Source: Opitutaceae bacterium (GTDB taxonomy: Bacteria > Verrucomicrobiota > Verrucomicrobiia > Opitutales > Opitutaceae). Taken from it: a DNA stretch of 64,000 nt. Where the stretch lies: the NCBI GenBank assembly GCA_018402455.1, contig JAGYIG010000001.1, positions 148,164 through 212,163 on the forward strand. Direction: 5' to 3'. Position 1 is the first letter of the stretch. Each line of letters starts with the position of its first letter. This document shows positions 6,555-61,395 of the stretch, piece by piece. Under the pieces are notes generated by a model. The model made no database searches and was not told the origin of the DNA. It was given only the letters and a program-made list of their open reading frames with translations. The position numbers and the translations under genes are program-made.

Positions 6555-8057
6555 ATGCCTGTTGTTTCAAAAAAATCGTCGGCCCGGGCCCCACGCCGAC
6601 GCGTCGAACCTGAACTCATTTTCGGTGACCTTTGGGAGTTTGATCCCGCGCCGGAATCGGCCGATCCCAAGCTGCGGGCGAGCTACGGACTCTTTATAGG
6701 GGGCAAGTTCGTCGCGCCCCAAAGTGGCCGCACGTTCACCTCGATCAATCCGGGCACGGGTCAGCCGTTGGCGGAGATTGCGCTCGCGGGTTCGGCGGAG
6801 GTGGACGCCGCCTACCGGGCAGCGACCAAGGCTTTTTCGCCCTGGGCCCGACTCCCGGGGGCCGAGCGGGGGAAATACCTCTACCGCATTGCCCGCATCC
6901 TGCAGGACCGGGCTCGTGAATTTGCCGTGGCCGAGACCCTCGATGGGGGCAAGCCGATCAAGGAATCCCGCGACTTCGACGTGCCCATGGCGGCGGCGCA
7001 TTTTTTCTACCATGCCGGCTGGGCGGATAAATTGGCCTACGTGTTTCCCGGCGCCACGCCGCAACCGCATGGGGTGGTGGGTCAGGTCATCCCCTGGAAT
7101 TTTCCTTTGTTGATGCTGGCGTGGAAGATCGCGCCTGCGCTGGCGACCGGTAACACCGTCGTGCTCAAGCCCGCCGAGACCACCTCGATCACCGCCCTGA
7201 AATTCGCCGAAGTGCTACAGGAGGCGGGCCTGCCGGCCGGGGTGGTCAATATCGTGACCGGCGCGGGGGAAACGGGGGCGGCGGTGGTGAACCACCCCGC
7301 GGCGGCGAAGGTTGCATTCACCGGGTCCACCGAGGTGGGCAAACGGATCATGCGCTCCACGGCCGGCACCGGCAAAAAGCTCACCCTCGAACTCGGAGGC
7401 AAGGCGGCCAATATCGTCTTCGAAGACGCCCCGTTGGATCAGGCGGTTGAGGGCATCGTGAATGGGATTTTCTTCAATCAAGGCCACGTCTGCTGCGCGG
7501 GTTCGCGCCTGCTGGTGCAGGAAAGCATCGCCGCGGGCGTGCTGCAGCGGCTGCGCCACCGGGTGCAGGTCCTGCGGGTGGGCAACCCGATGGATAAGAA
7601 CACCGATATCGGGGCGATCAATTCGCGGGAGCAGTTGGACCGGATTACGGCGCTGGTGAAGGCGGGCGTGGCGGAAGGCGCGGAGATGTTTCAGCCTCCG
7701 ATCGCCCTGCCCCGGCAGGGCTACTATTTCCGTCCGACCCTGTTCAGCGGGGTGGAGCAGAGCCACCGCATCGCCCGGGAGGAGATCTTTGGTCCCGTGC
7801 TCTCCATCCTCACCTTCCGCACGGTCGCCGAGGCCGTCGAGAAGGCCAACAACACCGCCTACGGTCTGAGTGCCGGGGTGTGGACCGAGAAGGGCTCGCG
7901 CATTCTCAAGCTGAGCACGGAGCTGAAGGCGGGCGTCATTTGGGCCAACACCTTCAACAAATTTGATCCCACGTCACCGTTTGGTGGATACAAAGAATCC
8001 GGCTTCGGCCGGGAAGGCGGCAAACAGGGCCTCGCCGACTACGTCAAACTCACCTGA
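6555..8057 (+). CDS. NAD-dependent aldehyde dehydrogenase (deoC-associated, full length)
   Basis: IPWNFP, LKPAE, FTGSTEVG, LELGGK, FFNQGHVCCAGSR, EEIFGPV, FGGYKESGFGREGG. Confidence 0.93.
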   Translation: MPVVSKKSSARAPRRRVEPELIFGDLWEFDPAPESADPKLRASYGLFIGGKFVAPQSGRTFTSINPGTGQPLAEIALAGSAEVDAAYRAATKAFSPWARLPGAERGKYLYRIARILQDRAREFAVAETLDGGKPIKESRDFDVPMAAAHFFYHAGWADKLAYVFPGATPQPHGVVGQVIPWNFPLLMLAWKIAPALATGNTVVLKPAETTSITALKFAEVLQEAGLPAGVVNIVTGAGETGAAVVNHPAAAKVAFTGSTEVGKRIMRSTAGTGKKLTLELGGKAANIVFEDAPLDQAVEGIVNGIFFNQGHVCCAGSRLLVQESIAAGVLQRLRHRVQVLRVGNPMDKNTDIGAINSREQLDRITALVKAGVAEGAEMFQPPIALPRQGYYFRPTLFSGVEQSHRIAREEIFGPVLSILTFRTVAEAVEKANNTAYGLSAGVWTEKGSRILKLSTELKAGVIWANTFNKFDPTSPFGGYKESGFGREGGKQGLADYVKLT

Positions 8058-8082
8058 GGCGGAGCCACTCCGCCGCGTTTTT
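8058..8082 (+). terminator. Intrinsic-terminator-like hairpin after the ALDH gene
   Basis: GGCGGAG-CCA-CTCCGCC followed by GCGTTTTT. Confidence 0.5.
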
Positions 8083-8083
8083 G

Positions 8084-8535
8084 AACCACGAATGGACACG
8101 AATAAACCCGAATTAGAGAATGACCTGTTACACGGTGATTTGGTGTATCGTGTCGTGGGCTGTTGTTTTGAAGTGATGAAGGAGATGGGGCATGGATTGC
8201 ATGAAAAGCCTTATGAAAATGCCTTGGTCATTGCTTTTGATGATGCCGGGTTGCCGGTTAATCAGCAGCAGATTTACCCCATCACTTTCAGGGAGCAAAA
8301 AGTGGGAGAGTATATCCCTGATCACATCGTTGATAGTGCGATCGTGGTGGACACCAAGGTAGTGGATAGGATTGGCGACCACGAACGCGGGCAGATGCTC
8401 AACTATCTCCGCATCACCGGCCTCTGGGTCGGCTTAATCGTAAATTTCAAACACGCCAAACTAGAGTGGCAGCGTGTTGTTCTATAACCTGATTTACCTG
8501 AGTTGATTTGAGTAAATTCGTGTCCATTCGTGGTT
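8084..8535. mobile_element. Putative mobile cassette: 20-bp inverted repeats bracketing a GxxExxY gene
   Basis: AACCACGAATGGACACGAAT at 8084-8103 and its exact reverse complement at 8516-8535, both with outer T/A tracts; interior visibly lower in GC than its neighbours. Confidence 0.6.
8092..8487 (+). CDS. GxxExxY protein (PD-(D/E)XK nuclease superfamily)
   Basis: GHGLHEKPYENAL (GxxExxY), YIPD..VVDTK, GQMLNYL, GLIVNF; 131 aa; the ATG lies inside the left inverted repeat. Confidence 0.9.
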   Translation: MDTNKPELENDLLHGDLVYRVVGCCFEVMKEMGHGLHEKPYENALVIAFDDAGLPVNQQQIYPITFREQKVGEYIPDHIVDSAIVVDTKVVDRIGDHERGQMLNYLRITGLWVGLIVNFKHAKLEWQRVVL

Positions 8536-8547
8536 AAAAAGAAACTC

Positions 8548-9420
8548 ATGCCTAGACTGACTATTTCCAAGACGCCCAAGTGTTATGTCGGGGGTAAGTT
8601 CATTCGCTCCGAGAGTGGGCGCACGTTTCCGTTGCACGATGCGACCGGCGCCTTCTTCGCGCACGTGCCGCAATGCACGCGCAAGGATGTGCGCAACGCC
8701 GTCGAAGTTGCCGCCCGGGCTGGCGCCGGCTGGGCGGCCCGTTCCGCCTACAACCGGGGGCAGATCCTCTACCGTCTCGCCGAGATGCTCGAGCCGCGGA
8801 CCAAAGAGCTCGTCGAGGCCTTGAAGTTGAACGGCCTGCCCTCCGCCGCGGCGAAGGCCGAGGTGGTGGCCACCATCGACCGCGTGGTGCACTACGCCGG
8901 ATGGGCCGACAAGTATGAGCAGCTGCTGGGCAACGTGAACCCGGTGGCCTCCCCGCATTTCAACTTCACCGTCACCGAGCCCATGGGGGTGATTGGTATC
9001 GTGGCGCCGGATGACTCGCCTTTGCTGGGCCTGCTCACCTGCATCCTGCCGGCCATCACGGCGGGCAACAGTGTCGTGGTCATCACGGCCGAGACCGCGC
9101 CCTATCCGGCCATCGCCTTGGGCGAGATGTTGGCGACGAGTGATCTGCCCGGCGGGGTGGTGAACCTGCTCACCGGTTTCCGCCAGGAGATGGTGCCGAC
9201 CCTCGCCACGCATGCGCACCTGAGGGCCATCGGGGGCGTGGTCGATTCCGCCGACCGCAAGATCCTCGAAATCGGCGCGGCGGAAAGTGTGAAACGGGTC
9301 AAGGTGCTCAACGCGGTGCCCCCGCTCGATTGGTATGCCGGCGACGGCCCTCAAGCCTCGCTCTACGCCATTCAGGATTTTTTGGAATACAAGACCACCT
9401 GGCACCCGGTGGGCGCCTAG
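8548..9420 (+). CDS. Truncated aldehyde-dehydrogenase-family protein (NAD-binding and oligomerisation parts only)
   Basis: KTPKCYVGGKFIRSESG, YAGWADK, EPMGVIGI, LPGGVVNLLTG, EYKTTWHP; lacks ELGGK, the catalytic Cys segment and EEIFGP; 290 aa. Confidence 0.85.
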   Translation: MPRLTISKTPKCYVGGKFIRSESGRTFPLHDATGAFFAHVPQCTRKDVRNAVEVAARAGAGWAARSAYNRGQILYRLAEMLEPRTKELVEALKLNGLPSAAAKAEVVATIDRVVHYAGWADKYEQLLGNVNPVASPHFNFTVTEPMGVIGIVAPDDSPLLGLLTCILPAITAGNSVVVITAETAPYPAIALGEMLATSDLPGGVVNLLTGFRQEMVPTLATHAHLRAIGGVVDSADRKILEIGAAESVKRVKVLNAVPPLDWYAGDGPQASLYAIQDFLEYKTTWHPVGA

Positions 9421-9462
9421 GCTTCGCGGGTGAGGCGGCAGTCTTACCGTCGCGTCGCGGTG

Positions 9463-10323
9463 CTAGCCGTAGAACAGCGTCGACCAGCGCCCCTGTTCGA
9501 TCATCTCGGCTTTGACGGCCTCCCAGACTTCGAGGGTGCCGGCAGCATCGGTGAACACTTGGTCGAGGTCCTCTTCCAGCCGGGACAGCCCGGAAATATA
9601 GACGTGAGTCTTGGGGTCTTGGATCAGGTCCCACGCCTCGGCGGCGTTGTCCGCGATGGTGGAGGAGATATCAACCGGCACGTCGAAGTGCGGGCGCGGG
9701 CTGAGCGCCTCAAACGCCTTGAACGTGGCCTCGTCGTAGTAGGTCGCGAGGTCACCGTTCTTGTCGTTGAGGTAGAGCAAGTCCATGCCGGTCTTGGCGC
9801 CGTAAAAGAGACGGATCTTACCCTGCCATTCCTGACGGTCCTCGTAGATGTGTTTGAGGAAGGCGCGGAACGGGGCGATGCCGGTGCCGACACCGATCAT
9901 GAGCAGATTGCAGGTGGGGTCCCGGGGCGGCATGAAGTGCCGTCCGTAGGGACCGGTCATCCGGATTTGGTCGCCGGGTCGGGCATCGCAAAGGTGATGG
10001 GAGACCACCCCGGGGTGCCGTTCGCCACTGATGTCATCAATGAGGAAGCACCGGCGCACGCAGAGGGAAATCTCGGCGGCATCCTCGGCTTCTCCCCGGC
10101 GGGAGCTGGCGATCGAGTAGAGGCGCAGGTAGTTCTCGTTGCCAAAAACGGGCGGCGCCTCGACGAGCACGCCGACGCTCTGGCCTTCGATGAATTGGAA
10201 TGACGGATGATGGATGCGCAGGTTGATGTGGCGGACCTCATCGGTGTTTTCGTCGGTGATCCTTTCGGACTTCGTGACGGTCGCGGTGAAAGGGTTGCTG
10301 ATGTCGTATTCGGTGAGTTTCAT
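9463..10323 (-). CDS. Ferredoxin-NADP+ reductase (plant-type FNR fold)
   Basis: RLYSIASS, SLCVRR, GVVSHHLC, MTGPYG, GTGIAPFRAFL, LFYGAK, YISG. Confidence 0.88.
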   Translation of the reverse strand: MKLTEYDISNPFTATVTKSERITDENTDEVRHINLRIHHPSFQFIEGQSVGVLVEAPPVFGNENYLRLYSIASSRRGEAEDAAEISLCVRRCFLIDDISGERHPGVVSHHLCDARPGDQIRMTGPYGRHFMPPRDPTCNLLMIGVGTGIAPFRAFLKHIYEDRQEWQGKIRLFYGAKTGMDLLYLNDKNGDLATYYDEATFKAFEALSPRPHFDVPVDISSTIADNAAEAWDLIQDPKTHVYISGLSRLEEDLDQVFTDAAGTLEVWEAVKAEMIEQGRWSTLFYG

Positions 10324-10568
10324 AACAGGTCTTTCTCGGTCGAGGCGGAGGTTTGAGGGGAGGATTTAAAGGCTTTGAGCAGTTTCTTTTTCGGGCACTG
10401 GTTGGTGTCGCGGCACAGGCAGATCAGGCTGCAGCCGCCGCCCTCCTCGCGGGCGGGCCCCAGCTCGGCGTGGCGCGCGGCGAAGCGGCGGGCGGCCTGC
10501 TGCACCAGGATCCAGCCCAGCAGGGCCAGGAAGATCAGGGCGATGGCAATGAGGGTGTTGAGGATCAT
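10320..10568 (-). CDS. Small single-TM protein with Cys cluster
   Basis: 82 aa; N-terminal TM, GGGCSLICLCRDTNQC; stop overlaps the FNR start (ATGA); starts 4 nt after the rnfA stop. Confidence 0.65.
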   Translation of the reverse strand: MILNTLIAIALIFLALLGWILVQQAARRFAARHAELGPAREEGGGCSLICLCRDTNQCPKKKLLKAFKSSPQTSASTEKDLL

Positions 10569-10572
10569 GGCA

Positions 10573-11154
10573 TTAACCTCCCAATCCGGCGAAGCCCATG
10601 AAGGTGAGGGACAGCAGTCCGGCGATCATCAGGCTGAGAGCAGCCTGGGTGACGGTGTCGGGCACGTCGGCGAGTTCGAGTTTCTCGCGCAGCCCGGCCA
10701 TGAGGACGAGGGCGAGGGTGAAGCCGGCGCCGGCGCCGAGGCTGAAGGCGAGGCACTGGGTGAAGTCGTATTCCCGGTTCGTCTGAAACAGCGCGAGACC
10801 GAGGATGGCGCAATTGGTGGTGATCAACGGCAGGAAGATGCCGAGGGTCCGGAACAGGGCCGGGCTGAATTTTTTGACAAACATCTCCACCAGTTGCACC
10901 GCCGAGGCGATGACCGCGATGTAGCTGATCAGACGCAGGAACTCCAAGTCGAAGCGCACCAGCAGGTGGTTGATGCCGAAGGCGCAAACCGAGCTCACGA
11001 GCATGACAAAGATGACGGCCAGGCCCATGTTCCAGGCGGTCTTCACCTTGCCGGAAACGCCGAGGAACGGGCACAGCCCGAGGAACATCGCCAGGACGAA
11101 ATTATTGATCAAAAACGCGTTGAGGAAAATGAAGGCGTGGGAGTCAGGCGACAT
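10573..11154 (-). CDS. rnfA: Rnf complex subunit A
   Basis: NNFVLAMFLGLCPFLGVS, LGIFLPLITTNCAILG, GLREKL, SLTFMGFAGL. Confidence 0.93.
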   Translation of the reverse strand: MSPDSHAFIFLNAFLINNFVLAMFLGLCPFLGVSGKVKTAWNMGLAVIFVMLVSSVCAFGINHLLVRFDLEFLRLISYIAVIASAVQLVEMFVKKFSPALFRTLGIFLPLITTNCAILGLALFQTNREYDFTQCLAFSLGAGAGFTLALVLMAGLREKLELADVPDTVTQAALSLMIAGLLSLTFMGFAGLGG

Positions 11155-11794
11155 GGGATTCCTCCGGTTTGGCCGCGGTGCGGCGTTTGCGAATCAGCGC
11201 GAACAGGAACAGCCAACCGGCCAGGGCGAAGAAGCCGCCCGGAGGCAGGGCAAAGACGGCCCACGGCTGGAAGCTCGCCCCAAAAAGCTCGAAGCCGAAC
11301 AGGGAGCCGAAGCCCAGAACCTCGCGCACCACGCCGAGGCAGAGCAGGGCGAGGGTGAAGCCCACGCCCATGCCCAGCGCGTTGACGAATGCGTTGGTCA
11401 CCGGGTTCTTCGAGGCATAGGACTCGGCCCGGCCGAGAATCACGCAATTGACCACGATCAACTGAATGAACGCCCCGAGCGCGCGGTGCAGGTCCAGACT
11501 GATGGCCTGGATCGCGTAGTCCACGATCGTGACAAACGTGGCGATGATGATGATGTAGCAGGCGATCCGCACCTGCTTGGGAATGATCTTGCGTAACAAC
11601 GAAACCAATACGCCGGAGCAGAGCAGGACAAAGGTGGTGGCCAGGCCCATGGCGAGGGCGTTGGTGGCGGTGTTGGTCACCGCCAGCACGGGGCACAGGC
11701 CGAGCAACATGACAAAGACCGGGTTTTCCTTCCAGACCCCCTGGGTGAAGGTCGCGAGGGAGAGGGTCTCGGGGGCGCGGGGATCGGTGGCCAT
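11144..11794 (-). CDS. rnfE: Rnf complex subunit E
   Basis: WKENPVFVMLLGLCPVLAVT, FIQLIVVNCVILGRAE, VREVLGFG, PPGGFF. Confidence 0.93.
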   Translation of the reverse strand: MATDPRAPETLSLATFTQGVWKENPVFVMLLGLCPVLAVTNTATNALAMGLATTFVLLCSGVLVSLLRKIIPKQVRIACYIIIIATFVTIVDYAIQAISLDLHRALGAFIQLIVVNCVILGRAESYASKNPVTNAFVNALGMGVGFTLALLCLGVVREVLGFGSLFGFELFGASFQPWAVFALPPGGFFALAGWLFLFALIRKRRTAAKPEESHVA

Positions 11795-12489
11795 TACTCG
11801 TCTCCTTTCCGGGGGGTTAACAGGTGTTGATTGGCGATCAGGGTGGGCAGCATGGCTTGCGCGCTGGTGTTGAGGGCGTTGCCGACCGCGGCGGAGGTGA
11901 TGGTGGCGCCGGAGATGCCATCGATTTCCCAAGCGTTCACCTTGCGACCATTTTTGACCGTGGTGATGGGGTGGGCCAGCGCATCACCGGCGGCGTTGAG
12001 GCTCGCATCGAGTGGGTTGAAGTTCTCTTGGAAGGCGTCGTCGCTCTCGACCTTGTCGCCGATGCCCGGGGTCTCGGAGCTCTGCAAGACGGTGAAGCCG
12101 AGGATGCCCTGTTGAGCGGGATCGTAGGCGTAGAGAATGCGCACCACGTCCTGGTAGCCCCGGGCGGATCCCTCCATGGCGACCCCGACCAGCTGATGGT
12201 CGGCATCGTAGCCGGCGAAGACGTTGGCCTCGGCAAACTGCTCGGCGGGGAGGGGCGTGAGGGCATTTCCCTCGAGTCGGAAATTGGCGTGGGCCGTCGC
12301 GGTGGGGAGCACCTGAAAGATGGCGCGTTCCAGGGCGGCCTGCTGGTTCTTTTTGATGACCGGGGCGGTGACCTGGTAGGTGACGGCCACCAACAGTCCC
12401 GAGATCACGGCGATGGCGGCGAGCGCGGTGATCAGTTTGCGGCTGCTGGGCAGGGCCGGAGCCGGGGGGGGAGGGAAGGCGTCGCTCAT
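11794..12489 (-). CDS. rnfG: Rnf complex subunit G (FMN-binding)
   Basis: N-terminal TM, GYQDVVRIL, ETPGIG, DGISGATITS flavinylation motif. Confidence 0.9.
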   Translation of the reverse strand: MSDAFPPPPAPALPSSRKLITALAAIAVISGLLVAVTYQVTAPVIKKNQQAALERAIFQVLPTATAHANFRLEGNALTPLPAEQFAEANVFAGYDADHQLVGVAMEGSARGYQDVVRILYAYDPAQQGILGFTVLQSSETPGIGDKVESDDAFQENFNPLDASLNAAGDALAHPITTVKNGRKVNAWEIDGISGATITSAAVGNALNTSAQAMLPTLIANQHLLTPRKGDE

Positions 12490-13541
12490 GCGGCGCCTTT
12501 CTTTTTGGGCGCTCCGTAGCGCCGCGGTTGGGTCAGACTGCTGATGAGCGGGGAGCAAGCGTTGGCCAGCAGGATGGCATACATGATCCCTTCGCTGAGT
12601 CCGCCGAACAGCCGAATGATGATGGTGATGAAACCGATCAATCCCCCGTAGATCCACACCCCGAGGGGCGTCACCGGGGACGCCACCATATCAGTGGCCA
12701 TGAAGACCGCGCCGAGCATCAGCCCGCCGGAGCAGAGCATGAAGAGGGGGCCGGGATACTTGTCCCCGTCGATGAGGTAAAAGACCAGGGTGGTGAGGGC
12801 GGCCACGACGAGCACGCTGATCGTCACCCGCACCTCCATCATGCGGCGATAGACGAGGTAGGCGCCGCACAGGAGAATGAGCAAGGCGGAGGTTTCGCCG
12901 GCGGAACCGGCGGTTGAACCCAACAACAGTTGCAGGGAGTCGGTCGGGACCTGTTCGAACTTCATCAACGCCAGCGGGGTCGCGCCGGAAAAGCCGTCGG
13001 GGGCCACGACCTCCAGCCACGGCTGGATCGATTCGGGCCGCAGGAAGGGCAGGGTGAACGTCGAGGGGATGAACGAGGTGAAGCGGTCGGGCGCCAGAAT
13101 GGGCACCCATGTGGTCATCGGCGCGGTGAACGCGGCTTGGGCGAAGGCCCGCCCGATCAGGGCCGGGTTCATGACGTTGTAGCCGAGGCCGCCGAAGAAC
13201 AGCTTGCCGAGTCCGACCCCCGCGACGGAGGCGACCATGGCCATCCACAGGGGAAATCCCGGCGGCAGGGTGAGGGCGAGGAGCAGGCCAGTGATGGTCA
13301 CACTCCAATCGTTGACCGTGGTCGGCCGGTGCGACCAGCGGCAGACCAGATGTTCGACCGCGATACACGTGCCCACGCAGACCAGCACGAGCGCGAGCAC
13401 ACTGATCCCGAACTGGTAGATCGAGAACGCGACGATCGGGAGCAGCGCATAGACGACGTTGCGCATGATCACGTCGACCGTGGGGGTTTCGCGCAGGTGC
13501 GGTGAAGTCCGCAATACGACGTGGTGTCCGGTGGTGCTCAT
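12486..13541 (-). CDS. rnfD: Rnf complex subunit D
   Basis: TSPH, KLFFGGLGYNVMNPALIGR, DGFSGATPL flavinylation motif, GSAGETSA, GAVFMATD. Confidence 0.93.
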   Translation of the reverse strand: MSTTGHHVVLRTSPHLRETPTVDVIMRNVVYALLPIVAFSIYQFGISVLALVLVCVGTCIAVEHLVCRWSHRPTTVNDWSVTITGLLLALTLPPGFPLWMAMVASVAGVGLGKLFFGGLGYNVMNPALIGRAFAQAAFTAPMTTWVPILAPDRFTSFIPSTFTLPFLRPESIQPWLEVVAPDGFSGATPLALMKFEQVPTDSLQLLLGSTAGSAGETSALLILLCGAYLVYRRMMEVRVTISVLVVAALTTLVFYLIDGDKYPGPLFMLCSGGLMLGAVFMATDMVASPVTPLGVWIYGGLIGFITIIIRLFGGLSEGIMYAILLANACSPLISSLTQPRRYGAPKKKGAA

Positions 13542-14911
13542 GAGGCGGCGGCCCTTTCTCGCGCGGCTTGTTCGCGCAGACTGGATTTGGCGATGCGGAA
13601 GTATTGCACCAGCGGGATGCCGCTGGGGCAGACGTAGCTGCAGCAGCCGCACTCAAAACAGTCCATCAAGTGGAAGTCGCCCTGCATCTCCTCGTAGCGG
13701 TGCTTGTGGGCGAGCTTGCCGAGCTGGGAGGGGTTGAGGTGCATCGGACACGCGGCCACGCACTGGGCGCAACTGATGCACGGGTAGCTCACGGCGTCCC
13801 GCTGCTGCTGCTCGAGGATCTGCTCTGTCAACACCAGCAGTCCGCCCGAACCCTTGGTCATGGGCACGGCCAGTGACGCCACCGAGCCGCCCATCATGGG
13901 CCCGCCCATGATCAGGCAATTGGAGGTGCCGGTGAAACCGAGTTGTTTAAGAATGAAGCCAACGGGGGTGCCGATCGGCACGAGGTAGTTGCCCGGTTTT
14001 TCGATGCCCGGTCCGGTCACGGTCACGACGCGTTCGATGACCCCGCGGCTGTGCGGAAACAGGGCTCCGAGCTCGGCGGTGGACGCGACGTTGAACACGC
14101 CGAGACCGACGGATGACGGGAAATTGCCGGAGGGGATTTCGACGCCCATCAGGGCCTTGGCCAACATCTTCTCGGCGCCTTGCGGATACTTGGTGGGCAC
14201 GGCCTGCACGGAGATCGGGCCGTCGGTCGGCAGGTGGGCCTGAATCGCGGCCACGGCGTCCATTTTGTTCTCCTCCGTGCCGATAATCGCGCGCTCCGCG
14301 CCCAGCGCCTTCATCAGGATCTTGGTGCCGCGGATCAGGTCCTCCGGATACTCCAACATCACGCGATGATCGGTGGTGAGAAACGGTTCACACTCGCAGC
14401 CATTGATCAGCACGGTGTGGACGTGGTGGCCTTGCGGGGGCGAGAGCTTCACGTGGGTGGGAAAGGCGGCGCCGCCGAGGCCGACCAGTCCCGTGTCCTG
14501 CACCGCTTGGACGATGGCCTTAGGCTCCATCGTGGTGTAGTCGCGGGGGGCGTCGTAGCGCACCTCCTGGCTGTCGCCGGGATAGACCTCGAGGAGGATG
14601 GACGGCGTGCGCGGCCCCTTGGCGGTGGGCATCAGTTCGATGCGTTTGATGCGTCCGGTGGCGGGGGCATGCAACGGCACCGACATAAAACCGTTGGCCT
14701 TGGCAATGGGTTCGCCGCGCACGACCTCCTGACCGGGATGCACCAGCGACTCCGAGGGGGCCCCGAAGTGCTGCGACAGGGGCAGCACCAACTCCGGCGC
14801 GAACGGCAACCGACGGATCGGCAGGTGCGCGGTGAAGTGCTTGTTCTCCGCGGGATGAATCCCGTGGGAGAACGTGCCGCTCGGGCGCAGGAATTTCAGG
14901 AGATCGAACAC
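13538..14911 (-). CDS. rnfC: Rnf complex subunit C
   Basis: FSHGIHP, LPLSQHFGAP, GLVGLGGAAFPTHVK, INGCECEPFLTTD, CISCAQCVAACP, CFECGCCSYVCP. Confidence 0.94.
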   Translation of the reverse strand: MFDLLKFLRPSGTFSHGIHPAENKHFTAHLPIRRLPFAPELVLPLSQHFGAPSESLVHPGQEVVRGEPIAKANGFMSVPLHAPATGRIKRIELMPTAKGPRTPSILLEVYPGDSQEVRYDAPRDYTTMEPKAIVQAVQDTGLVGLGGAAFPTHVKLSPPQGHHVHTVLINGCECEPFLTTDHRVMLEYPEDLIRGTKILMKALGAERAIIGTEENKMDAVAAIQAHLPTDGPISVQAVPTKYPQGAEKMLAKALMGVEIPSGNFPSSVGLGVFNVASTAELGALFPHSRGVIERVVTVTGPGIEKPGNYLVPIGTPVGFILKQLGFTGTSNCLIMGGPMMGGSVASLAVPMTKGSGGLLVLTEQILEQQQRDAVSYPCISCAQCVAACPMHLNPSQLGKLAHKHRYEEMQGDFHLMDCFECGCCSYVCPSGIPLVQYFRIAKSSLREQAARERAAAS

Positions 14912-14942
14912 GATTTAGTTAGAGCCGAAAGGATGAAACGGG

Positions 14943-15128
14943 TTTGAACCACTGCCGAGCGAAGCGACACCCGCGGAACGGAGAGACAAGGCAATGGACA
15001 CGAATGGCTCCGCTACCGCTACGCGATGGAACGGCTGCCAGTTGAATTCTCTCTCTTGCAAGAACGCGGTGGAGTGGTTCAGCGCCGAACGGTAGTGAGG
15101 CATATTCGTGTCCATTCGTGGTTAAAAA
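14943..15128. repeat. Gene-less (MITE-like) copy of the GxxExxY inverted-repeat element
   Basis: ATTCGTGTCCATTCGTGGTT+AAAAA at 15104-15128 is identical to 8516-8540; the opposite arm is TTTGAACCAC (14943-14952) plus AATGGACACGAAT (14993-15005), split by a 40-nt insert. Confidence 0.75.
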
Positions 15129-15141
15129 ACAGCGCGGTTGG

Positions 15142-18100
15142 TTACTGGAATTTTTCCGCGCGCTTGATGAGCTTGGCGGCGTCCTTTTCGTGGGGGTCGG
15201 CGGGGGTGCCGGGGTGGATGCATTTGCCGGTGCACTTTTCCGCCGCGCGAACGATGTCCTTGAACGGTCCGCCCTTCGGATCCTTTACGAACGCCTTCTT
15301 GTCGCTGTCGTAGGCAAAGATCTTCGGGTTGATGTTGGTGCATTCGTCGCAGGCGGTGCACTCGCTTTGGTCGATCCAAGCGGGTTCGAACCCGGCGGCC
15401 GGAGCCGCGGGGGCCGTCGCCGGGGCCGCGCCGTTGGCAGGAGCGGCTTCCAGCAGGGGAGTCACGCCACCATCGCCAGCCAGCATGGCCATGAGCCCTT
15501 GCGCCAGTTTCTGGGCGGTTTCACTGCGAACCTGTTGGGCGATTTGTTCGGGGTCGACCTTGCCGGTGAGACCGGCGAGACCGCGGAGCGTCCGCCAGTA
15601 GTCGCGGCGTTCCTCGGTGGAGCGCACGATTTCCTGAGCGACCAGCACGCGAACGAGATGGTTCTGCTTGTTCACCGACCAGATGTAGGGGAACCGGCCT
15701 TCGCGATCGTCGGCCGCGAGGTCGATGAATTCGGCGAGGGGCAGCATATTGTCGTTCCAGGTGTCGGGCGGAGCGACGCGGAAGTGCTTGCGGAAGCGGC
15801 CTTCCTGCACCGCGAAGTCGGCGAACGTCATCGGGATCTCCATCTGCTGGGGCGTGCCGTCCTCGTCGAGATAGCTGAGCTGGTAGCTGGGCCAGTCCTC
15901 ATCGATGGCGGGATTGCCCTCCAGCTCGATGCACTCGGCCCACGACTCGCCGGCATCGGGATCGAAGCGGAAGAGCGGATAGGCGCGCGATTCGGTGGCC
16001 ATCTTGCTGCGGAAGGCGGTGGAGTCGTCCGGCACCCCGTGTTCGGGCTGACACACCGCGTAGATGCTGAACAGGGCGGGGCGACGGGAGTTGATGCCGT
16101 CGATGTAGCCCTCGATCAGGTGGGTGACGTTGGCTAGGCTGCCCTGCATGATGAAGGCGGTGCGGTGGGCGGCACCGATGAGCGCCATCTCCTTGCGGGT
16201 CTCGGTCTTGCCCTTCCACGCCTTGCCGTAGGGGGCCATGTCGGAGACCTGACCGATGAAGCCCGAGGTGCAGGCCTGACCCCCGGTGTTGGAATACACC
16301 TGCGTATCCATCACGAAGATCTTGATCGGGCGCCCGGTCATGAGCGCGCGGGAGACGTTCTGGAAGCCGATGTCGAACATGGCGCCGTCGCCGCCGACCG
16401 CGACCACCGGTGGGCTGAGCAGGTATTCCTCGTCCGTGAAGCTTTCCCAATTGAAAACCTCGAGCGATTTTTGGATCGCGCGGAAATCGGTGTCGCCCGC
16501 GATTTCGGCCTCGGCCATGCGGATGGCTTTGAAGCCATCGGCCATTTTGCGCATGTGGCCCTCAAAGATACCGAGGGACACCGAAGCGGCGTCCTGGAAC
16601 AGGTGGTTGGACCACGGGAACGGATATGGATTGTAGGGGAACGAGCCGCCGTAGATGGACGAACACCCGGTGGCGTTCATGAAGCCCAGATGGGCGCGGC
16701 CGGTGTGGGTGATGCCCTCTTCGTAGCGCCATTTGAGGTCCTTCAACTGCGCGAGCAGGTCACTCATCCAAGTGAGCCATTCCTGATCGAGCGGGGTGCC
16801 GGCCTTGCCCTCGTCGAGGGCTCCGGCGAGGTCGGACAGCTTGAGGTCACGATCGCCGCTGCGGCCGAGCACGGCCTTGAGGGCGGACGGATCGCTCACA
16901 TCAAACGTATCGGCCAGCTTGGCCTTCAGGTGGGTCTCGAGTTTGGCGATCAAGGTCCCGAGATATTCGACGTGGGTTTTCACGCGCCGCTGCATCAGCG
17001 CGGTGATCGTGCTGGTGAAGAGGTGCAGGACGGATTTTTCGCCGCAACCGGTGCAGGCGCCGTCGCCGCAGCTGATGGACGAGTAGACCGATTTGTCCAT
17101 GAGCATGGTCTCGAGGGCACCGATCTTTTCGTCGATGTCGTCGATCCGCATGAAGTCCTTGGTCGTGGTCGGCAGGTCCAGCCAGTAGTCCCATTCCTTT
17201 TCCAGCTTCGCGACCGATTGGGGCGTTTGCGGGATGGTGGTAAGGGCGTTGTCATCGCAGACATCCACGCAGAGCATGCAACCCTTGCAGGTGTAGGGAT
17301 TGATGGTGATGGCGTAGAGCCCGCCGGCTCCGGCCGCGACCTTCTCGCGTTGGTCGAAGTAAGGTTTGGTGAAGGCGAATTTGAATTCCCCCATCTCCTC
17401 GCGGAACCATTCGAATTCCTGAATCAAGGTGGCCTGATCGGCGCTGGTTTCGGCGATGGTATCGGAGATCGCGTCCACCAGCAGCGGGCCGACATCGAGG
17501 CTCGGGCCCGAGCGGTTGCCGTTCACGCCATGGGCGGCGGCGCGGAGTTTCTTTTCCACCGTGCGCACGGCCTTGGGTAGCAAGGTGACCTCGTGGCCGG
17601 CCTTTTTGACCCGCTTGATGGTGGCCTCGAAGGCGGCGGAGACCGAGCAAGCCAGACCGGGAATGGCGCTGTCGGGGCAGACCGTGAAGCACTCGCTGCA
17701 GGCCGTGCATTTGGACGGATCCCACACCGGGTGGTTGAACCGGATCTGGGTCATGTTCCGATACAGTCCGGTGTTGGCCGGGATGAGCCCCATGGCGGCA
17801 AACGGATCGGTGATGTGATCGTTGGGCTTGCCGCCCAGATAGAAGCTGCCGGTCTGTTCCCAGAACCGGTGCGTGTCCGTCATGGCATCGTCGCTCTGGG
17901 CGATGCGCTTGAGCATGAGCGGCAGGTTGGTGCGCTGTTTGGGCGAAGCGGCGACGGGGGCGCTGATCGCCATGTTTTCCAGCTTCACGATCTCGTCGAA
18001 CCCGCGTCGCACGACGCGGATGTTGTCCTCGACCACGCGGGCGCCCTTGCTGCCGAATTTTTTCTCAATCTGGTCGTGGATCGCCTTGAAGAGGCTCTCC

Positions 18101-20061
18101 TCGGTGAAGTTAGCGGACTCCATCAGATTGGAGGCGGCGAAGAAGGCGCCCTGGAAGGCGATGCCCTGCATCCGGAAGCGCAGCTCCTCATCGGAGGCCT
18201 CCTCGCGGGCAATTTTGAAGCCATCAACGTAGACGACCTTGATCTCGTTTTCGTTCATGAATTTCTGGGCGGCGATGGGGAAGGAGTTCCACACCGCTTC
18301 CGGCGAATCGAGTTCGCTTTGGATGATGAACGTGCCGCCCTTCTTCAGACCGGACAACGGGTTGGAGTGGCTGAAGACGTTGGGGTCGGGTGAGAGCACC
18401 GTGTCGACGAACATGTATTCGCAGTTGATGCGGATCGGTTCGGGGGCGGCGGACAGGTAGTAGGTGGTGGGCTGCCCCTTTTTCTCGGAGCCGTATTTGG
18501 GGTTGGCCTTGATATCGAAGCCGAGGAGTTCGTTGAGGGTGACGGCGAGGTTCTTGCCCGTGGTGATGGCGCCCCAGCCGCCGACGGAGTGCATGCGCAC
18601 GGTGATGGCGCCCTTGGGGAGCAGGTTCGGGTTCTCGCTGCCGCGCACGGCCAAGTGGGCGACGTGCGGGTATTTTTCGAGCAGGTTCTGCTGGTGGATC
18701 TCGTTCTTCGGCGACGGGTTGTCGTAGAGGAAGTCGATCGAAAGGTAGAAGAATTTCCGCTTGGCGCCGCCGGGCAGCATGTTCTCCACCGCGCCGATCA
18801 GGGCCTCGGGCTGGAGGTCCCGGCTGCCGAGGCCAAAGGAAGAGGAGTAGAGGGGTGGCATGTCGCCGGGCTTCGAGTAGCAGGCGTATTTGGGGTAGGG
18901 CGTCTCGCCCTTGGTCATGCCGTTTTCCAAGCACTTGCTCAGAGCGGCCCGCACCTCGCGAATGACCGGCAGGTCTTCGGCCAGGGGTTGGTCGGTGCGC
19001 TCGGGAATGACGACGCCCTTGCGGCCCTTGAGGATGGGGCCGAGCAAGTCGCCCGGGAACGGACGATACATGGTGAGCTCGACCACGCCAACCTTCACTC
19101 CGCGGGTTTCGCGGAGGTAATCGACCACGGCCTCGGCGGTGCCGATCACGCTGCCCATCGCGAGGATGAGGTAGTCGGCATCATCGCATTGGTAGGTCGA
19201 GATCCGACTGTATTTGCGGCCGGTCAACTCCGCGTATTCCGCCATGCACCGGTCGGTGATATCGGCGATGTGGTCGAAGAAGTAGGGCCGCTGCGCCGCG
19301 ACGGACTGCATGTAGGCATCCTGATTTTGGGCGGAGCCGGAGAGGACGGGATTATCGACGTCCCAGAGAATCGGGACCCGGCGGCGTTGTTTGCCGTAGA
19401 GCATTTCCTGCCCCGGCGTGGGGCTGGCGATCATGTCGTCGGGCCGGCCCAGGTATTCCGCGATGAGGTCGCGCTCGGGCACGAGCAGGGTTTCGATCAG
19501 GTGCGTGGTGAGGAAGCCGTCCTGCCCGACCGCGCCGGGGGTGAGGGTGAGCTCGGCGATCTTGCGGGAGATGAGGTTGAGGTCGGCCGCGGCCTGACCG
19601 TTCTTGCCCAACACCTGGAAGAAGCCGGTGTCGTCCATGAGGTGGTAGTCATCATGGGCGGCGTGCACGTTGAGGGTGGACTTGGTGATGGCGCGGCAAC
19701 CGACGTTGAGCAGGTAGGGCAGGCGCTTCCCCACGGCACCGTAGAGCGATTCGTGCATGTAGGCGATGCCCTGACCGGAGGAGAAGTTCGAAGCGCGCAG
19801 GCCGCTCATGGACAGGCCGGCGGTGACCCCGGCGGCGGCGTGCTCGCCCTCGGGCTCGATGAAGATCAGCGGATGATCGGAGATGTTGCGGTGTCCCCGG
19901 GCGGTTTCCTCGGCCCAATACTCACCCATTTGGGTGGAGGGGGTGATGGGATAGGCCCCGGCGGCATCGCTTGACTCCCGTTCGCACATGATGACGACGG
20001 TGTTTCCATCCATCGCCGCGGGAATTCCGGGATACTTCACAGTGGTTTTTTGGCTTACCAT
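15142..20061 (-). CDS. nifJ: Extended pyruvate(2-oxoacid):ferredoxin oxidoreductase, NifJ/PFOR type, 1639 aa
   Basis: YPITPST, VGGWGAITTGK, YGSEKKG, CTACSECFTVCP, CKGCMLCVDVC, CTGCGE, NATGCSSIYG, GGDG..DIG, DTQVYSNTGGQ, plus a C-terminal ferredoxin CTACDEC...CTGKCIHP. Confidence 0.9.
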   Translation of the reverse strand: MVSQKTTVKYPGIPAAMDGNTVVIMCERESSDAAGAYPITPSTQMGEYWAEETARGHRNISDHPLIFIEPEGEHAAAGVTAGLSMSGLRASNFSSGQGIAYMHESLYGAVGKRLPYLLNVGCRAITKSTLNVHAAHDDYHLMDDTGFFQVLGKNGQAAADLNLISRKIAELTLTPGAVGQDGFLTTHLIETLLVPERDLIAEYLGRPDDMIASPTPGQEMLYGKQRRRVPILWDVDNPVLSGSAQNQDAYMQSVAAQRPYFFDHIADITDRCMAEYAELTGRKYSRISTYQCDDADYLILAMGSVIGTAEAVVDYLRETRGVKVGVVELTMYRPFPGDLLGPILKGRKGVVIPERTDQPLAEDLPVIREVRAALSKCLENGMTKGETPYPKYACYSKPGDMPPLYSSSFGLGSRDLQPEALIGAVENMLPGGAKRKFFYLSIDFLYDNPSPKNEIHQQNLLEKYPHVAHLAVRGSENPNLLPKGAITVRMHSVGGWGAITTGKNLAVTLNELLGFDIKANPKYGSEKKGQPTTYYLSAAPEPIRINCEYMFVDTVLSPDPNVFSHSNPLSGLKKGGTFIIQSELDSPEAVWNSFPIAAQKFMNENEIKVVYVDGFKIAREEASDEELRFRMQGIAFQGAFFAASNLMESANFTEESLFKAIHDQIEKKFGSKGARVVEDNIRVVRRGFDEIVKLENMAISAPVAASPKQRTNLPLMLKRIAQSDDAMTDTHRFWEQTGSFYLGGKPNDHITDPFAAMGLIPANTGLYRNMTQIRFNHPVWDPSKCTACSECFTVCPDSAIPGLACSVSAAFEATIKRVKKAGHEVTLLPKAVRTVEKKLRAAAHGVNGNRSGPSLDVGPLLVDAISDTIAETSADQATLIQEFEWFREEMGEFKFAFTKPYFDQREKVAAGAGGLYAITINPYTCKGCMLCVDVCDDNALTTIPQTPQSVAKLEKEWDYWLDLPTTTKDFMRIDDIDEKIGALETMLMDKSVYSSISCGDGACTGCGEKSVLHLFTSTITALMQRRVKTHVEYLGTLIAKLETHLKAKLADTFDVSDPSALKAVLGRSGDRDLKLSDLAGALDEGKAGTPLDQEWLTWMSDLLAQLKDLKWRYEEGITHTGRAHLGFMNATGCSSIYGGSFPYNPYPFPWSNHLFQDAASVSLGIFEGHMRKMADGFKAIRMAEAEIAGDTDFRAIQKSLEVFNWESFTDEEYLLSPPVVAVGGDGAMFDIGFQNVSRALMTGRPIKIFVMDTQVYSNTGGQACTSGFIGQVSDMAPYGKAWKGKTETRKEMALIGAAHRTAFIMQGSLANVTHLIEGYIDGINSRRPALFSIYAVCQPEHGVPDDSTAFRSKMATESRAYPLFRFDPDAGESWAECIELEGNPAIDEDWPSYQLSYLDEDGTPQQMEIPMTFADFAVQEGRFRKHFRVAPPDTWNDNMLPLAEFIDLAADDREGRFPYIWSVNKQNHLVRVLVAQEIVRSTEERRDYWRTLRGLAGLTGKVDPEQIAQQVRSETAQKLAQGLMAMLAGDGGVTPLLEAAPANGAAPATAPAAPAAGFEPAWIDQSECTACDECTNINPKIFAYDSDKKAFVKDPKGGPFKDIVRAAEKCTGKCIHPGTPADPHEKDAAKLIKRAEKFQ

Positions 20062-61222: not shown

Positions 61223-61327
61223 GCGGGCTTCGTCAAGCGAAGCCCCTACCTCATGAGGTAGGGCGGTTTCGCCGAAACCGCCGGCTGCGGGCTGACGGCT
61301 TCGTGGCTTTCGTGTCATTCGTGGTTC
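61223..61327. repeat. Back-to-back REP doublet plus TTCGTG triplet
   Basis: REP-B-like (-, 61224-61249, loop CTTGA), palindromic junction CCTACCTCATGAGGTAGG, REP-A (+, 61258-61282), then TTCGTGGCT-TTCGTGTCA-TTCGTGGTT (61300-61326). Confidence 0.85.
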
Positions 61328-61395
61328 ACCCAAGGCGTGCCTCAACCGTCGCCGCCGCGGGCGTGGGGGGGGCATTTACTGTTGCAACCCGTCCT

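Follow-up and report, generated by a model that had tools for sequence, protein, structure and literature searches.

Small palindromic repeats occupy much of the intergenic DNA of bacteria. To our knowledge, a partner enzyme is known only for the REP sequences (RAYT) and, since 2025, for the NTS sequences (Ssn). The GxxExxY proteins form a very large family without known function. Several described systems serve here for comparison. One is that of the REPINs and the RAYT transposases (Bertels and Rainey 2011, PMC3116915; 2011, PMC3337134). Another is that of the Ssn nucleases and the NTS/SRM repeats, in which the cleavage of single-stranded DNA has been demonstrated (Chenal et al. 2025, PMC11893778). 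The last is the protective structure of the REP/BIME type that lies between malE and malF in the malEFG operon of E. coli (summarised in PMC5927463).

We examined a palindromic segment located between the PFOR and rnfC genes of an Opitutaceae genome. This segment is a gene-less, somewhat eroded copy belonging to a family of palindromic repeats in intergenic DNA. We hold it rather probable that the arms of this family have been multiplied and kept uniform by an activity linked to GxxExxY, and that the segment is a transcribed-through passenger. What is new from this locus is the allelic series of a single copy, a deletion stub, and a measured constraint on the arms.

Anatomy and history of the element in the PFOR–rnfC gap

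The window, namely the whole stretch of 64,000 nt that was analysed, corresponds to positions 148164–212163 of contig C1 in an Opitutaceae assembly of 3.67 Mb in 100 contigs (hereafter G000). The PFOR–rnfC spacer is 230 nt long (14912–15141) and is the sole wide gap in the operon, the remaining genes of which overlap or abut. The features of the locus and of its gene-carrying sibling are as follows (G and L numbers denote other genomes and contigs).

8079–8540, plus strand: gene-carrying sibling, a GxxExxY cassette with identical arms (gene at 8092–8487), 6.6 kb from the PFOR–rnfC element
13538–14911, minus strand: rnfC, 457 aa (TIGR01945, 484 bits), the downstream gene, with the start codon GTG
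14915–15115, minus strand: ORF of 66 aa starting MDTN at the ATG of the arm, judged non-coding (no match in NCBIfam)
14943–15128, minus strand: the whole gene-less palindromic element, 186 nt, with a homologous element in L107, L122 and L121
14943–14952, plus strand: detached terminal word of the rnfC-side arm, TTTGAACCAC, at the position of the arm end that adjoins the G011 and L121 flanks
14953–14992, plus strand: 40-nt module interrupting the rnfC-side arm, containing GCGAAGCGAC and absent from the orthologous element of L121
14993–15031, plus strand: inner part of the rnfC-side arm, AATGGACACGAAT and a subterminal segment with GCTACCGCTACGC (nhmmer E = 2.6e-7)
15032–15082, minus strand: variable interior (loop) of about 50 nt, about 60% identical to L121
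15083–15103, minus strand: PFOR-side subterminal arm segment, 21 nt, of the family type with CTCACTACCGTTCGGC, which recurs in copies from G010 and other genomes
15104–15123, minus strand: core of the PFOR-side arm, the exact 20-mer AACCACGAATGGACACGAAT, with two CACGAAT heptamers 10 nt apart behind AAC
15124–15129, minus strand: T-run (on the transcribed strand) directly outside the PFOR-side arm, a feature near-universal outside the 65 arm ends collected
15142–20061, minus strand: PFOR, 1639 aa (TIGR02176 and PorA/B/C/D-type matches), the upstream gene

On the transcribed strand, the stop codon of PFOR is followed by 12 nt, six T and the 20-mer (15123 down to 15104), which is exactly the arrangement given in the earlier note, where the 20-mer with its A-tract was placed 18 nt after the stop; its orientation relative to transcription, as noted there, is the same as at the ALDH cassette. 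The 20-mer was found three times in the window without mismatch, at 8084 (+), 8516 (−) and 15104 (−), with an expectation of 0.00 from shuffled sequences. The former two occurrences (8084–8103 and 8516–8535; 0 mismatches) are both arms of the GxxExxY cassette. The borders of the 186-nt element are TTTGAACCAC (14943–14952) on one side and GTGGTT with the A-run (15118–15129) on the other.

The DNA of about 100 nt between the arms had been taken as unrelated. A variable loop does lie there, but about 20 nt beside each core are subterminal sequences that are conserved in the family and pair with each other; the core of the PFOR-side segment, CCTCACTACCGTTCGGC, is identical to that of L121 at 17 of 17 positions. 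Furthermore, the loop itself is not wholly foreign, as an 18-mer in it (15062–15079) matches the tail of the G000 GTAG REPs at every position.

The inner part of the rnfC-side arm (14993–15031) matches the family arm profile at positions 14–53 without the first 13 (nhmmer), and it pairs with the PFOR-side arm in the predicted fold. The opposite arm had been described as split by a 40-nt insert. In the alignment with L121, the 40-nt block breaks an arm that is continuous there, between AACCAC(G) and AATGG; since the arm of L121 is uninterrupted, the split-arm reading is correct. The detached word TTTGAACCAC, which reads GTGGTTCAAA on the transcribed strand (14952–14943) and lies 31 nt from the GTG start codon of rnfC, has a chance expectation of about 0.0005 per 70-nt stretch.

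The history of the copy can be followed in 13 versions of the junction, which were collected from whole genomes and metagenome contigs.

L107 (rnfC 99% identical): spacer of 230 nt; the G000 element with two base changes
L122: spacer of 240 nt; PFOR-side arm with one additional 10-nt heptamer unit
L121: spacer of 191 nt; the same element, fully colinear, with the rnfC-side arm uninterrupted
L111, L116 and eight identical contigs, and G011: spacer of 225 nt (167 nt in G011); degenerate arms, another interior, and a nested unrelated palindrome
L108–L110: spacer of 24 nt, closing in TTTAACCAC immediately 5′ of the GTG start codon
G005: spacer of 33 nt; no element, possibly a heptamer-like remnant (CCCACGCGAAT)
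G006: spacer of 445 nt; an array of GTAG REPs
G112, G171: spacer of about 200–260 nt; other palindromic repeats
G064: spacer of about 130–170 nt; no recognised repeat, weak structure (z −1.3)
G098: spacer of 8 nt; no repeat

In L108–L110, the terminal word of the rnfC-side arm is the sole remainder of the element. The 33-nt spacer of G005 was not accepted as a clean empty site, since the heptamer-like CCCACGCGAAT lies within it and the spacer may be a scar. In the tree of rnfC, the groups (G000, L107, L122), (L121, (L111, L116)) and (G005, (L108, G011)) were obtained, with a support of at least 95/96 for all three, and G006 falls outside. Because the element is found in three clades of this tree, it must have been inherited and predate the splits among them. 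The distance between L108 and G011 is only about 0.04 substitutions per site, so near that the element was presumably lost in L108 by a deletion that spared the terminal word. In addition, the two types of the interior are discordant with the gene tree, as would be expected if interiors had been replaced in place or had recombined.

Judged from the sequences compared, the copy entered the PFOR–rnfC gap before the three species-level clades split. Its later changes comprised whole 10-nt units, the 40-nt module and the replacement of the interior, together with the deletion down to the terminal word in one lineage. Across the junction versions, no fresh insertion at this site was seen; inheritance, remodelling and loss were all that was found. 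The spacer is accordingly far from invariant among relatives.

The repeat family and its association with GxxExxY genes

In G000, the arm was matched 21 times at up to 3 mismatches, while the reversed-pattern control gave 0 matches. These arms are grouped into about 12 gene-less inverted pairs (100–134 nt), a few single arms, and one gene-carrying copy. Among the Opitutaceae genomes sampled, 48 of the 61 contain the arm motif, with 0 to about 150 matches per genome. Thus, the paired copies that the earlier note expected elsewhere do exist, both in G000 and, as arm matches, in the family at large.

From the outside to the inside, the arm of the family consists of a T-run, AACCAC, heptamers at a 10-nt spacing (CACGAAT in G000), and a subterminal segment of about 20 nt that carries GTAG words, and two such arms are inverted around a variable loop. 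Both heptamers of an arm vary jointly between genomes (CACGAAT, CACGGAT, CGCGAAT and CACTAAT). The copies in G010, a genome of the same genus with about 110 arm matches and a cassette, are highly regular: a T-run, AACCACGRAT, GGACACGRAT and a subterminal segment of two related types are followed by a variable loop of 15–30 nt and then by the mirror image, which closes in an A-run. In an alignment of 18 copies, 18 arm base pairs were common to all, and 4 were changed on both sides. When G000 and G010 were taken together, 16 of the 25 copies were located between co-directional genes, and such between-gene copies typically reach within 0–50 nt of the flanking stop and start codons. A composite of a REP and an arm-like end was also observed in the window, at 61256–61328. 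The sequence CTGCCTCTC, which adjoins arm ends, was rejected as a part of the element, as it is no more frequent in the genome (33 occurrences) than the control (36). One occurrence simply forms the first codons of the following gene, yet about half of its copies adjoin hairpin repeats.

The constraint on the arms was estimated from the comparison between G000 and L121. The arms are identical at 85 of the 87 aligned positions, whereas the identity is 0.657 at the codon third positions of rnfC and the 3′ end of PFOR, about 60% in the loop, and about 68% in the 34 nt between the element and rnfC. The probability of obtaining at least 84 matches in 87 at p = 0.66 is 3e-12. Since the identity of the arms is far above that of the third positions, the arms are constrained in sequence, beyond mere pairing. 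On the other hand, the orthologous arms have decayed in G011 and L111, the other copies of which use CACGGAT and CACAGAT. Such constancy of the arms is what one would expect if a variant-specific protein recognises them, or if other copies homogenise them. An RNA stem under selection is a poorer fit, since compensated changes would be tolerated in it. Conserved arms would also fit a function for the host.

The 40-nt block that interrupts the arm in G000 has relatives. At other loci of four genomes of the genus (G001, G009, G012 and G016), a block of the same length was found at the same position in the arm, with an identity of 70–80%. Its origin as a copy of other DNA in G000 was rejected, as no match longer than 15 nt was found there. 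Its length equals four 10-nt units, and no unit structure was recognised inside. Two other copies in G000 have in common a different block, of 28 nt, at the same arm position. Together with the 10-nt unit of L122, these blocks indicate that the arms vary by segments added behind a constant terminal word. The border of the deletion in L108 is at the same place, right after AACCAC. This place may mark a cut site, a post hoc reading of few events.

The turnover at other sites was examined by comparing six of them, namely five further copies of G000 and the cassette site, with G011, G005 and G006. The relatives differ in state at five of these six. In one case, both G000 and G006 have a filled site, in opposite orientations and with different variants, and the site is short (19–20 nt) in G011 and G005. 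Another site is filled in all four genomes with a different heptamer in each. At the ALDH site, G000 and G006 have the gene enclosed by the arms; the element found there in G005 and G011 is gene-less, similar in architecture and built on another heptamer. No target-site duplication was found at the borders of filled and short alleles of the six sites, nor at the PFOR–rnfC junction. A clean empty site was not found either, and the short spacer of L108, and perhaps that of G005, resembles a scar left by deletion. It seems that occupied sites are used again or overwritten, and that gene-less forms arise at positions where other genomes have the gene. The earlier description of the element as a mobile, non-autonomous MITE-like derivative therefore holds in part: the element is a gene-less member of the family that bounds the cassette, but neither a new insertion at the site nor a target-site duplication accompanies it.

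The protein encoded in the cassette (131 aa; TIGR04256, 119 bits; PF13366, 110 bits) was modelled with a pLDDT of 90 as a minimal nuclease fold of the PD-(D/E)XK type. The solved structures nearest to the model are lambda-type exonucleases, Cas4 and the Hjc resolvase, all at a TM of about 0.5, and a sequence search of the PDB with the cassette nuclease gave no match. In the literature searched for GxxExxY and PF13366, there were only passing mentions and no biochemical data for any PF13366 protein; likewise, the literature searched held no published description of the heptamer-armed repeats of GxxExxY cassettes.

Several features connect this gene to the arms. One is that the sole gene of G000 flanked by CACGAAT arms is the PF13366 gene. 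Another is that the arm heptamers encode MDTNxHE, the conserved N-terminus of this GxxExxY subfamily, so that the gene and the arms evolve together. The last is that in all four genomes examined, the dominant gene-less variant is also the arm variant of a GxxExxY cassette in the same genome: CACGAAT in G000, CACGGAT in G010, CGCGAAT in G085 and CACAGAG in G058, the last of which contains 126 CACAGAG arms and zero CACGAAT. Heptamer arms were also found at about 23 of the 29 GxxExxY loci from other genera. G000 itself has two further GxxExxY cassettes. The second, between gatA and gatB, has CACAGAG arms and no gene-less copies; the third, between gyrB and gyrA, has 6-nt units of GCGAAG/GCAAAG, and tandem GCGAAG sites are found elsewhere in G000 (about a dozen, many of them in a recurring repeat context). 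Contigs with close GxxExxY homologues were seen to stop at the repeat or to be without the Rnf operon.

GxxExxY genes are present in 55 of the 61 Opitutaceae genomes, so presence or absence discriminates poorly. In G051, 7 arm matches were found and a GxxExxY gene was not detected, and in G073 and G032, where a cassette is present, only 3–4 arm matches were found, which indicates that a cassette does not imply amplification. We thus regard the tie between the arms and GxxExxY as an association.

The repeats might instead be multiplied by some other trans-acting enzyme, such as a Y1/RAYT-type transposase or host recombination or repair, with the GxxExxY gene as cargo in some copies. G000 does have about 12 homologues of Y1_Tnp and abundant GTAG REPs, and REPIN/RAYT is the established model for hairpin doublets (PMC3116915). 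The GTAG words in the subterminal arm segments, the REP-tail 18-mer in the loop, and the composite of a REP with an arm-like end also speak for such an enzyme. However, flanking is the signature of the RAYT–REP relation, and within 600 nt of the 12 Y1-transposase homologues of G000 no such arms were found. Moreover, the arm variant tracks the own GxxExxY cassette in 4/4 genomes, and the MDTNxHE N-terminus of that subfamily is encoded by the heptamers. We consider this explanation unlikely.

Under the reading that we prefer, in which the activity is linked to GxxExxY, the phased heptamers would be the binding sites of a variant-specific protein, most likely the GxxExxY nuclease. The activity of the nuclease would multiply the repeats, either by cutting followed by repair copied from other copies or by hairpin-based copying, and the identical activity would keep the arms uniform. 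A more specific form can be formulated, in which GxxExxY cuts near the constant AACCAC at the phased heptamers, the break is repaired from other copies, and old copies are overwritten in place; the system would then be a homing-like counterpart of REPIN/RAYT and Ssn/NTS that is driven by a PD-(D/E)XK protein. This form would explain the 85/87 arm identity across a third-position divergence of about 34%, the changes of whole units and modules and the replacement of the interior at orthologous sites, and arm decay restricted to lineages with another variant in use. The borders right after AACCAC, which are shared by the 40-nt module, the 28-nt module in two copies and the L108 deletion, would also be explained. 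We offer this specific form tentatively, as a doubtful possibility.

The element in the operon transcript

The earlier note had also suggested a role in the processing or the stoichiometry of the mRNA. A scan of 7800–15600 with the covariance models of Rfam 15 gave no match, a terminator scan of 14700–15400 gave no terminator-like site, and a promoter scan at the element gave no sigma-70-like promoter. On either strand, a T-run comes first, then the hairpin, then an A-run (here CAAA), the opposite order to that of an intrinsic terminator. Since there is no terminator-like or promoter-like site and this order is found on both strands, the element would be transcribed through within the operon, where it may form a putative long imperfect hairpin in the mRNA, of no evident use to the host.

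The predicted folding energies for the sense strand are −50.9 kcal/mol for the 136-nt core, −65.5 kcal/mol for the whole 186-nt element, and −69.8 kcal/mol for the 230-nt spacer. At the junction, the antisense strand folds better than the sense strand in G000, L121, L111, G011 and G112, and the sense strand is the better folder in 8 of the 16 operon-embedded copies. On account of this even split and of the better antisense folds in most lineages at the junction, a strand-specific RNA structure was rejected.

As the earlier note had stated, the repeat opens an ORF that starts with MDTN. In 9 of the 13 comparable copies, however, the MDTN-type frame from the arm ATG stops inside the element. It was rejected as a gene or as a device for translational coupling, because it has no family match and the frame is not kept open; it arises only because the arm contains an ATG. 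With no terminator, promoter or Rfam match, no bias to the sense strand, and no conservation of the MDTN frame, a role at the RNA level is unsupported, and a processing or stoichiometry role of the element in the mRNA appears mildly disfavoured.

One form of such a role would be a hairpin co-opted by the host, in which the RNA stem-loop after PFOR blocks 3′-to-5′ exonucleases or marks a processing site and the PFOR mRNA outlasts the rnfCDGEA part, as has its precedent in the malE–malF protective structure (PMC5927463). The position in the sole wide gap of an otherwise tightly packed operon agrees with this, as does the conservation of the arms far past the level of synonymous sites. Furthermore, at least four unrelated families of hairpin repeats are found at the junction in other lineages (GTAG REPs in G006, the palindromes in G112 and in G171, and the nested ones in G011 and L111), with fold z-scores of −5.5 to −14.9. 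This repeated occupation of the junction by unrelated hairpins would be the best argument for a host role. Against it stand the near-absent spacers of G098 (8 nt), L108 (24 nt) and G005 (33 nt), the z-score of only about −1.8 to −2.0 for the G000 spacer, and the lack of preference for the sense strand described above. The arms are, in addition, strictly identical in sequence instead of forming compensated pairs, and identical repeat families are found at many other junctions. We judge a co-opted hairpin to be quite improbable.

It is very improbable that the 10-bp-phased heptamers serve the host as a binding array for a DNA-binding protein, which could be a regulator or, by analogy with the BIMEs of E. 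coli, a factor of the nucleoid or gyrase type: direct repeats at one helical turn, the joint change of the paired heptamers of an arm between genomes and the strict conservation of the arm sequence would agree with it. Copy numbers, however, range from 0 to about 150 between genomes, and the variants are lineage-specific; copies are found within operons, in the gaps separating a stop from a start codon, and they flank a small nuclease gene at either end; and an orthologous site may be filled, empty or filled with another variant. Returning to the preferred reading, the operon transcript probably carries the element as a passenger, and a designed device for stoichiometry is improbable.

Comparison with known systems

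This locus is of value because a single copy can be followed through a series of alleles: with the arm intact, with one more unit, with a module inserted, with another interior, and reduced by deletion to a stub. These alleles reveal how such elements change in place while the arms are held constant, and they supply a concrete sequence for in vitro work. If it is true that GxxExxY is the partner of heptamer-armed hairpins, one and the same finding would account for a protein family and for a class of repeats that is widespread, and a new sequence-specific nuclease might become available.

The malE–malF structure resembles the present element in that a dispersed palindromic repeat, predicted here to fold into a stable stem-loop, sits between two cistrons, just downstream of the one whose product is required in larger amount. 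It differs in that the present element is without a bias of the transcribed strand and is absent or replaced in close relatives.

The likeness to MITEs is found in the short, gene-less form with terminal inverted repeats, in the many copies, and in the larger gene-carrying relative with the same ends. Target-site duplication is the classical hallmark of MITEs, whereas it is absent at the six sites compared. The partner gene here encodes a protein with a predicted PD-(D/E)XK fold and is not a known transposase gene, and the arms are conserved where the matching variant is in use, in contrast to decaying ones.

In form, the REPINs are the closest known system. Both have two inverted units around a short spacer, forming a hairpin of about 100–130 nt, and both are dispersed in extragenic copies, from tens to hundreds per genome, with one protein gene flanked by the same repeats; in both, single arms decay and the variants are lineage-specific. 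The differences are found in the gene and in the arms. The flanked gene here encodes a nuclease of the PD-(D/E)XK type (PF13366), whereas RAYT is a Y1 transposase of the HUH class, and 0 of the 12 Y1 homologues have arms. The arms here are arrays of 10-nt-phased heptamers in variable number, whereas the arm of a REPIN is a single REP hairpin.

The Ssn/NTS pairs differ from the present system in the fold of the nuclease, which is GIY-YIG in Ssn and predicted to be PD-(D/E)XK in GxxExxY, and in the repeat, since an NTS is a single hairpin of about 30 nt and a phased heptamer array is found here. In addition, cleavage has been demonstrated for Ssn only, and the nuclease role of GxxExxY is putative. 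Nevertheless, both systems have a small nuclease gene with a short hairpin-forming repeat at either end, of which many further copies are scattered over the genome, and the variants of the repeat co-vary with the nuclease. In the arrangement of gene and repeat, the Ssn/NTS pairs are thus the closest known system.

Unit number and interruption of the arms

The palindromic repeat in the PFOR-rnfC spacer is bounded by heptamer arms, that is, inverted, 10-nt-phased heptamers (CACGAAT in G000, the genome of the window) with AACCAC and a T-run. When the related contig L122 (955–1203) was compared with positions 15104–15133 of the window, its PFOR-side arm was found to carry one additional 10-nt heptamer unit (GGACTCGAAT, TCACACGAAT). 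The rnfC DNA of that strain is about 99% identical to that of the window (tree distance of about 0.01); therefore, the arm arrays change over short time scales by the gain or loss of entire units. Concerning the 40-nt module that interrupts the rnfC-side arm, two other copies of the element in G000 have an insert at the same position, in each case a homologous 28-nt block in one arm:
C57:108364–108513, copy with the 28-nt block
C35:95880–96030, copy with the 28-nt block
Since this block is common to the two copies, the interruption of an arm did not prevent the element from being copied.

Intermixed repeat families

The GTAG REP family, a separate hairpin repeat family of G000, and the heptamer-arm family are physically entangled. 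The tail of the GTAG REP repeats is GCGGTGGAGTGG, which is found at many sites genome-wide (e.g., C4:44123–44400), and the complementary word, CCACTCCACCGC(A)G, frequently borders the T-run of the heptamer arms on its outer side. An 18-mer of this tail is located at window positions 15062–15079, within the loop of the PFOR-rnfC element, and one composite of the two families was found:
Window 61256–61328, REP hairpin leading straight into an arm-like end, TTTCGTGTCATTCGTGGTT

Another word, CTGCCTCTC, occurs 5–15 nt past the ends of hairpin repeats that belong to several distinct families (e.g., C57:108514–108535 and the C24 repeats). About half of its 33 copies in G000 lie just beyond hairpin repeats, it is not over-represented overall genome-wide, and in one case it simply codes for the N-terminal residues of the gene that follows.

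Further GxxExxY cassettes

Two housekeeping gene pairs of G000 each host one additional GxxExxY cassette with its own arm unit:
C13:25399–25830 (locus L085), gatA-gatB pair, CACAGAG heptamers
C8:27278–27760 (locus L086), gyrB-gyrA pair, 6-nt GCGAAG/GCAAAG
Gene-less copies of the gatA-gatB cassette are absent from the G000 genome. Beyond the gyrB-gyrA cassette, about 12 more tandem GCGAAG sites exist, many of them in a recurring repeat context.

The PFOR-rnfC junction and PFOR length

Unrelated hairpin repeats occupy this intercistronic junction in three other genomes:
G006 (locus L019), GTAG REP array
G112 (locus L020), GGGGTCAAA-type repeat, present twice
G171 (locus L021), long perfect palindrome
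The fold z-scores at the repeat-filled junctions of other lineages range from −5.5 to −14.9. Either the junction is unusually tolerant of insertions, or structure is favoured there.

The PFOR of the window (15142–20061) has 1639 aa and is matched, below the cut-off, by TIGR02176 (1167 model positions). It is about 450 aa longer than the canonical NifJ, and this long form (1622–1641 aa) also occurs in relatives.
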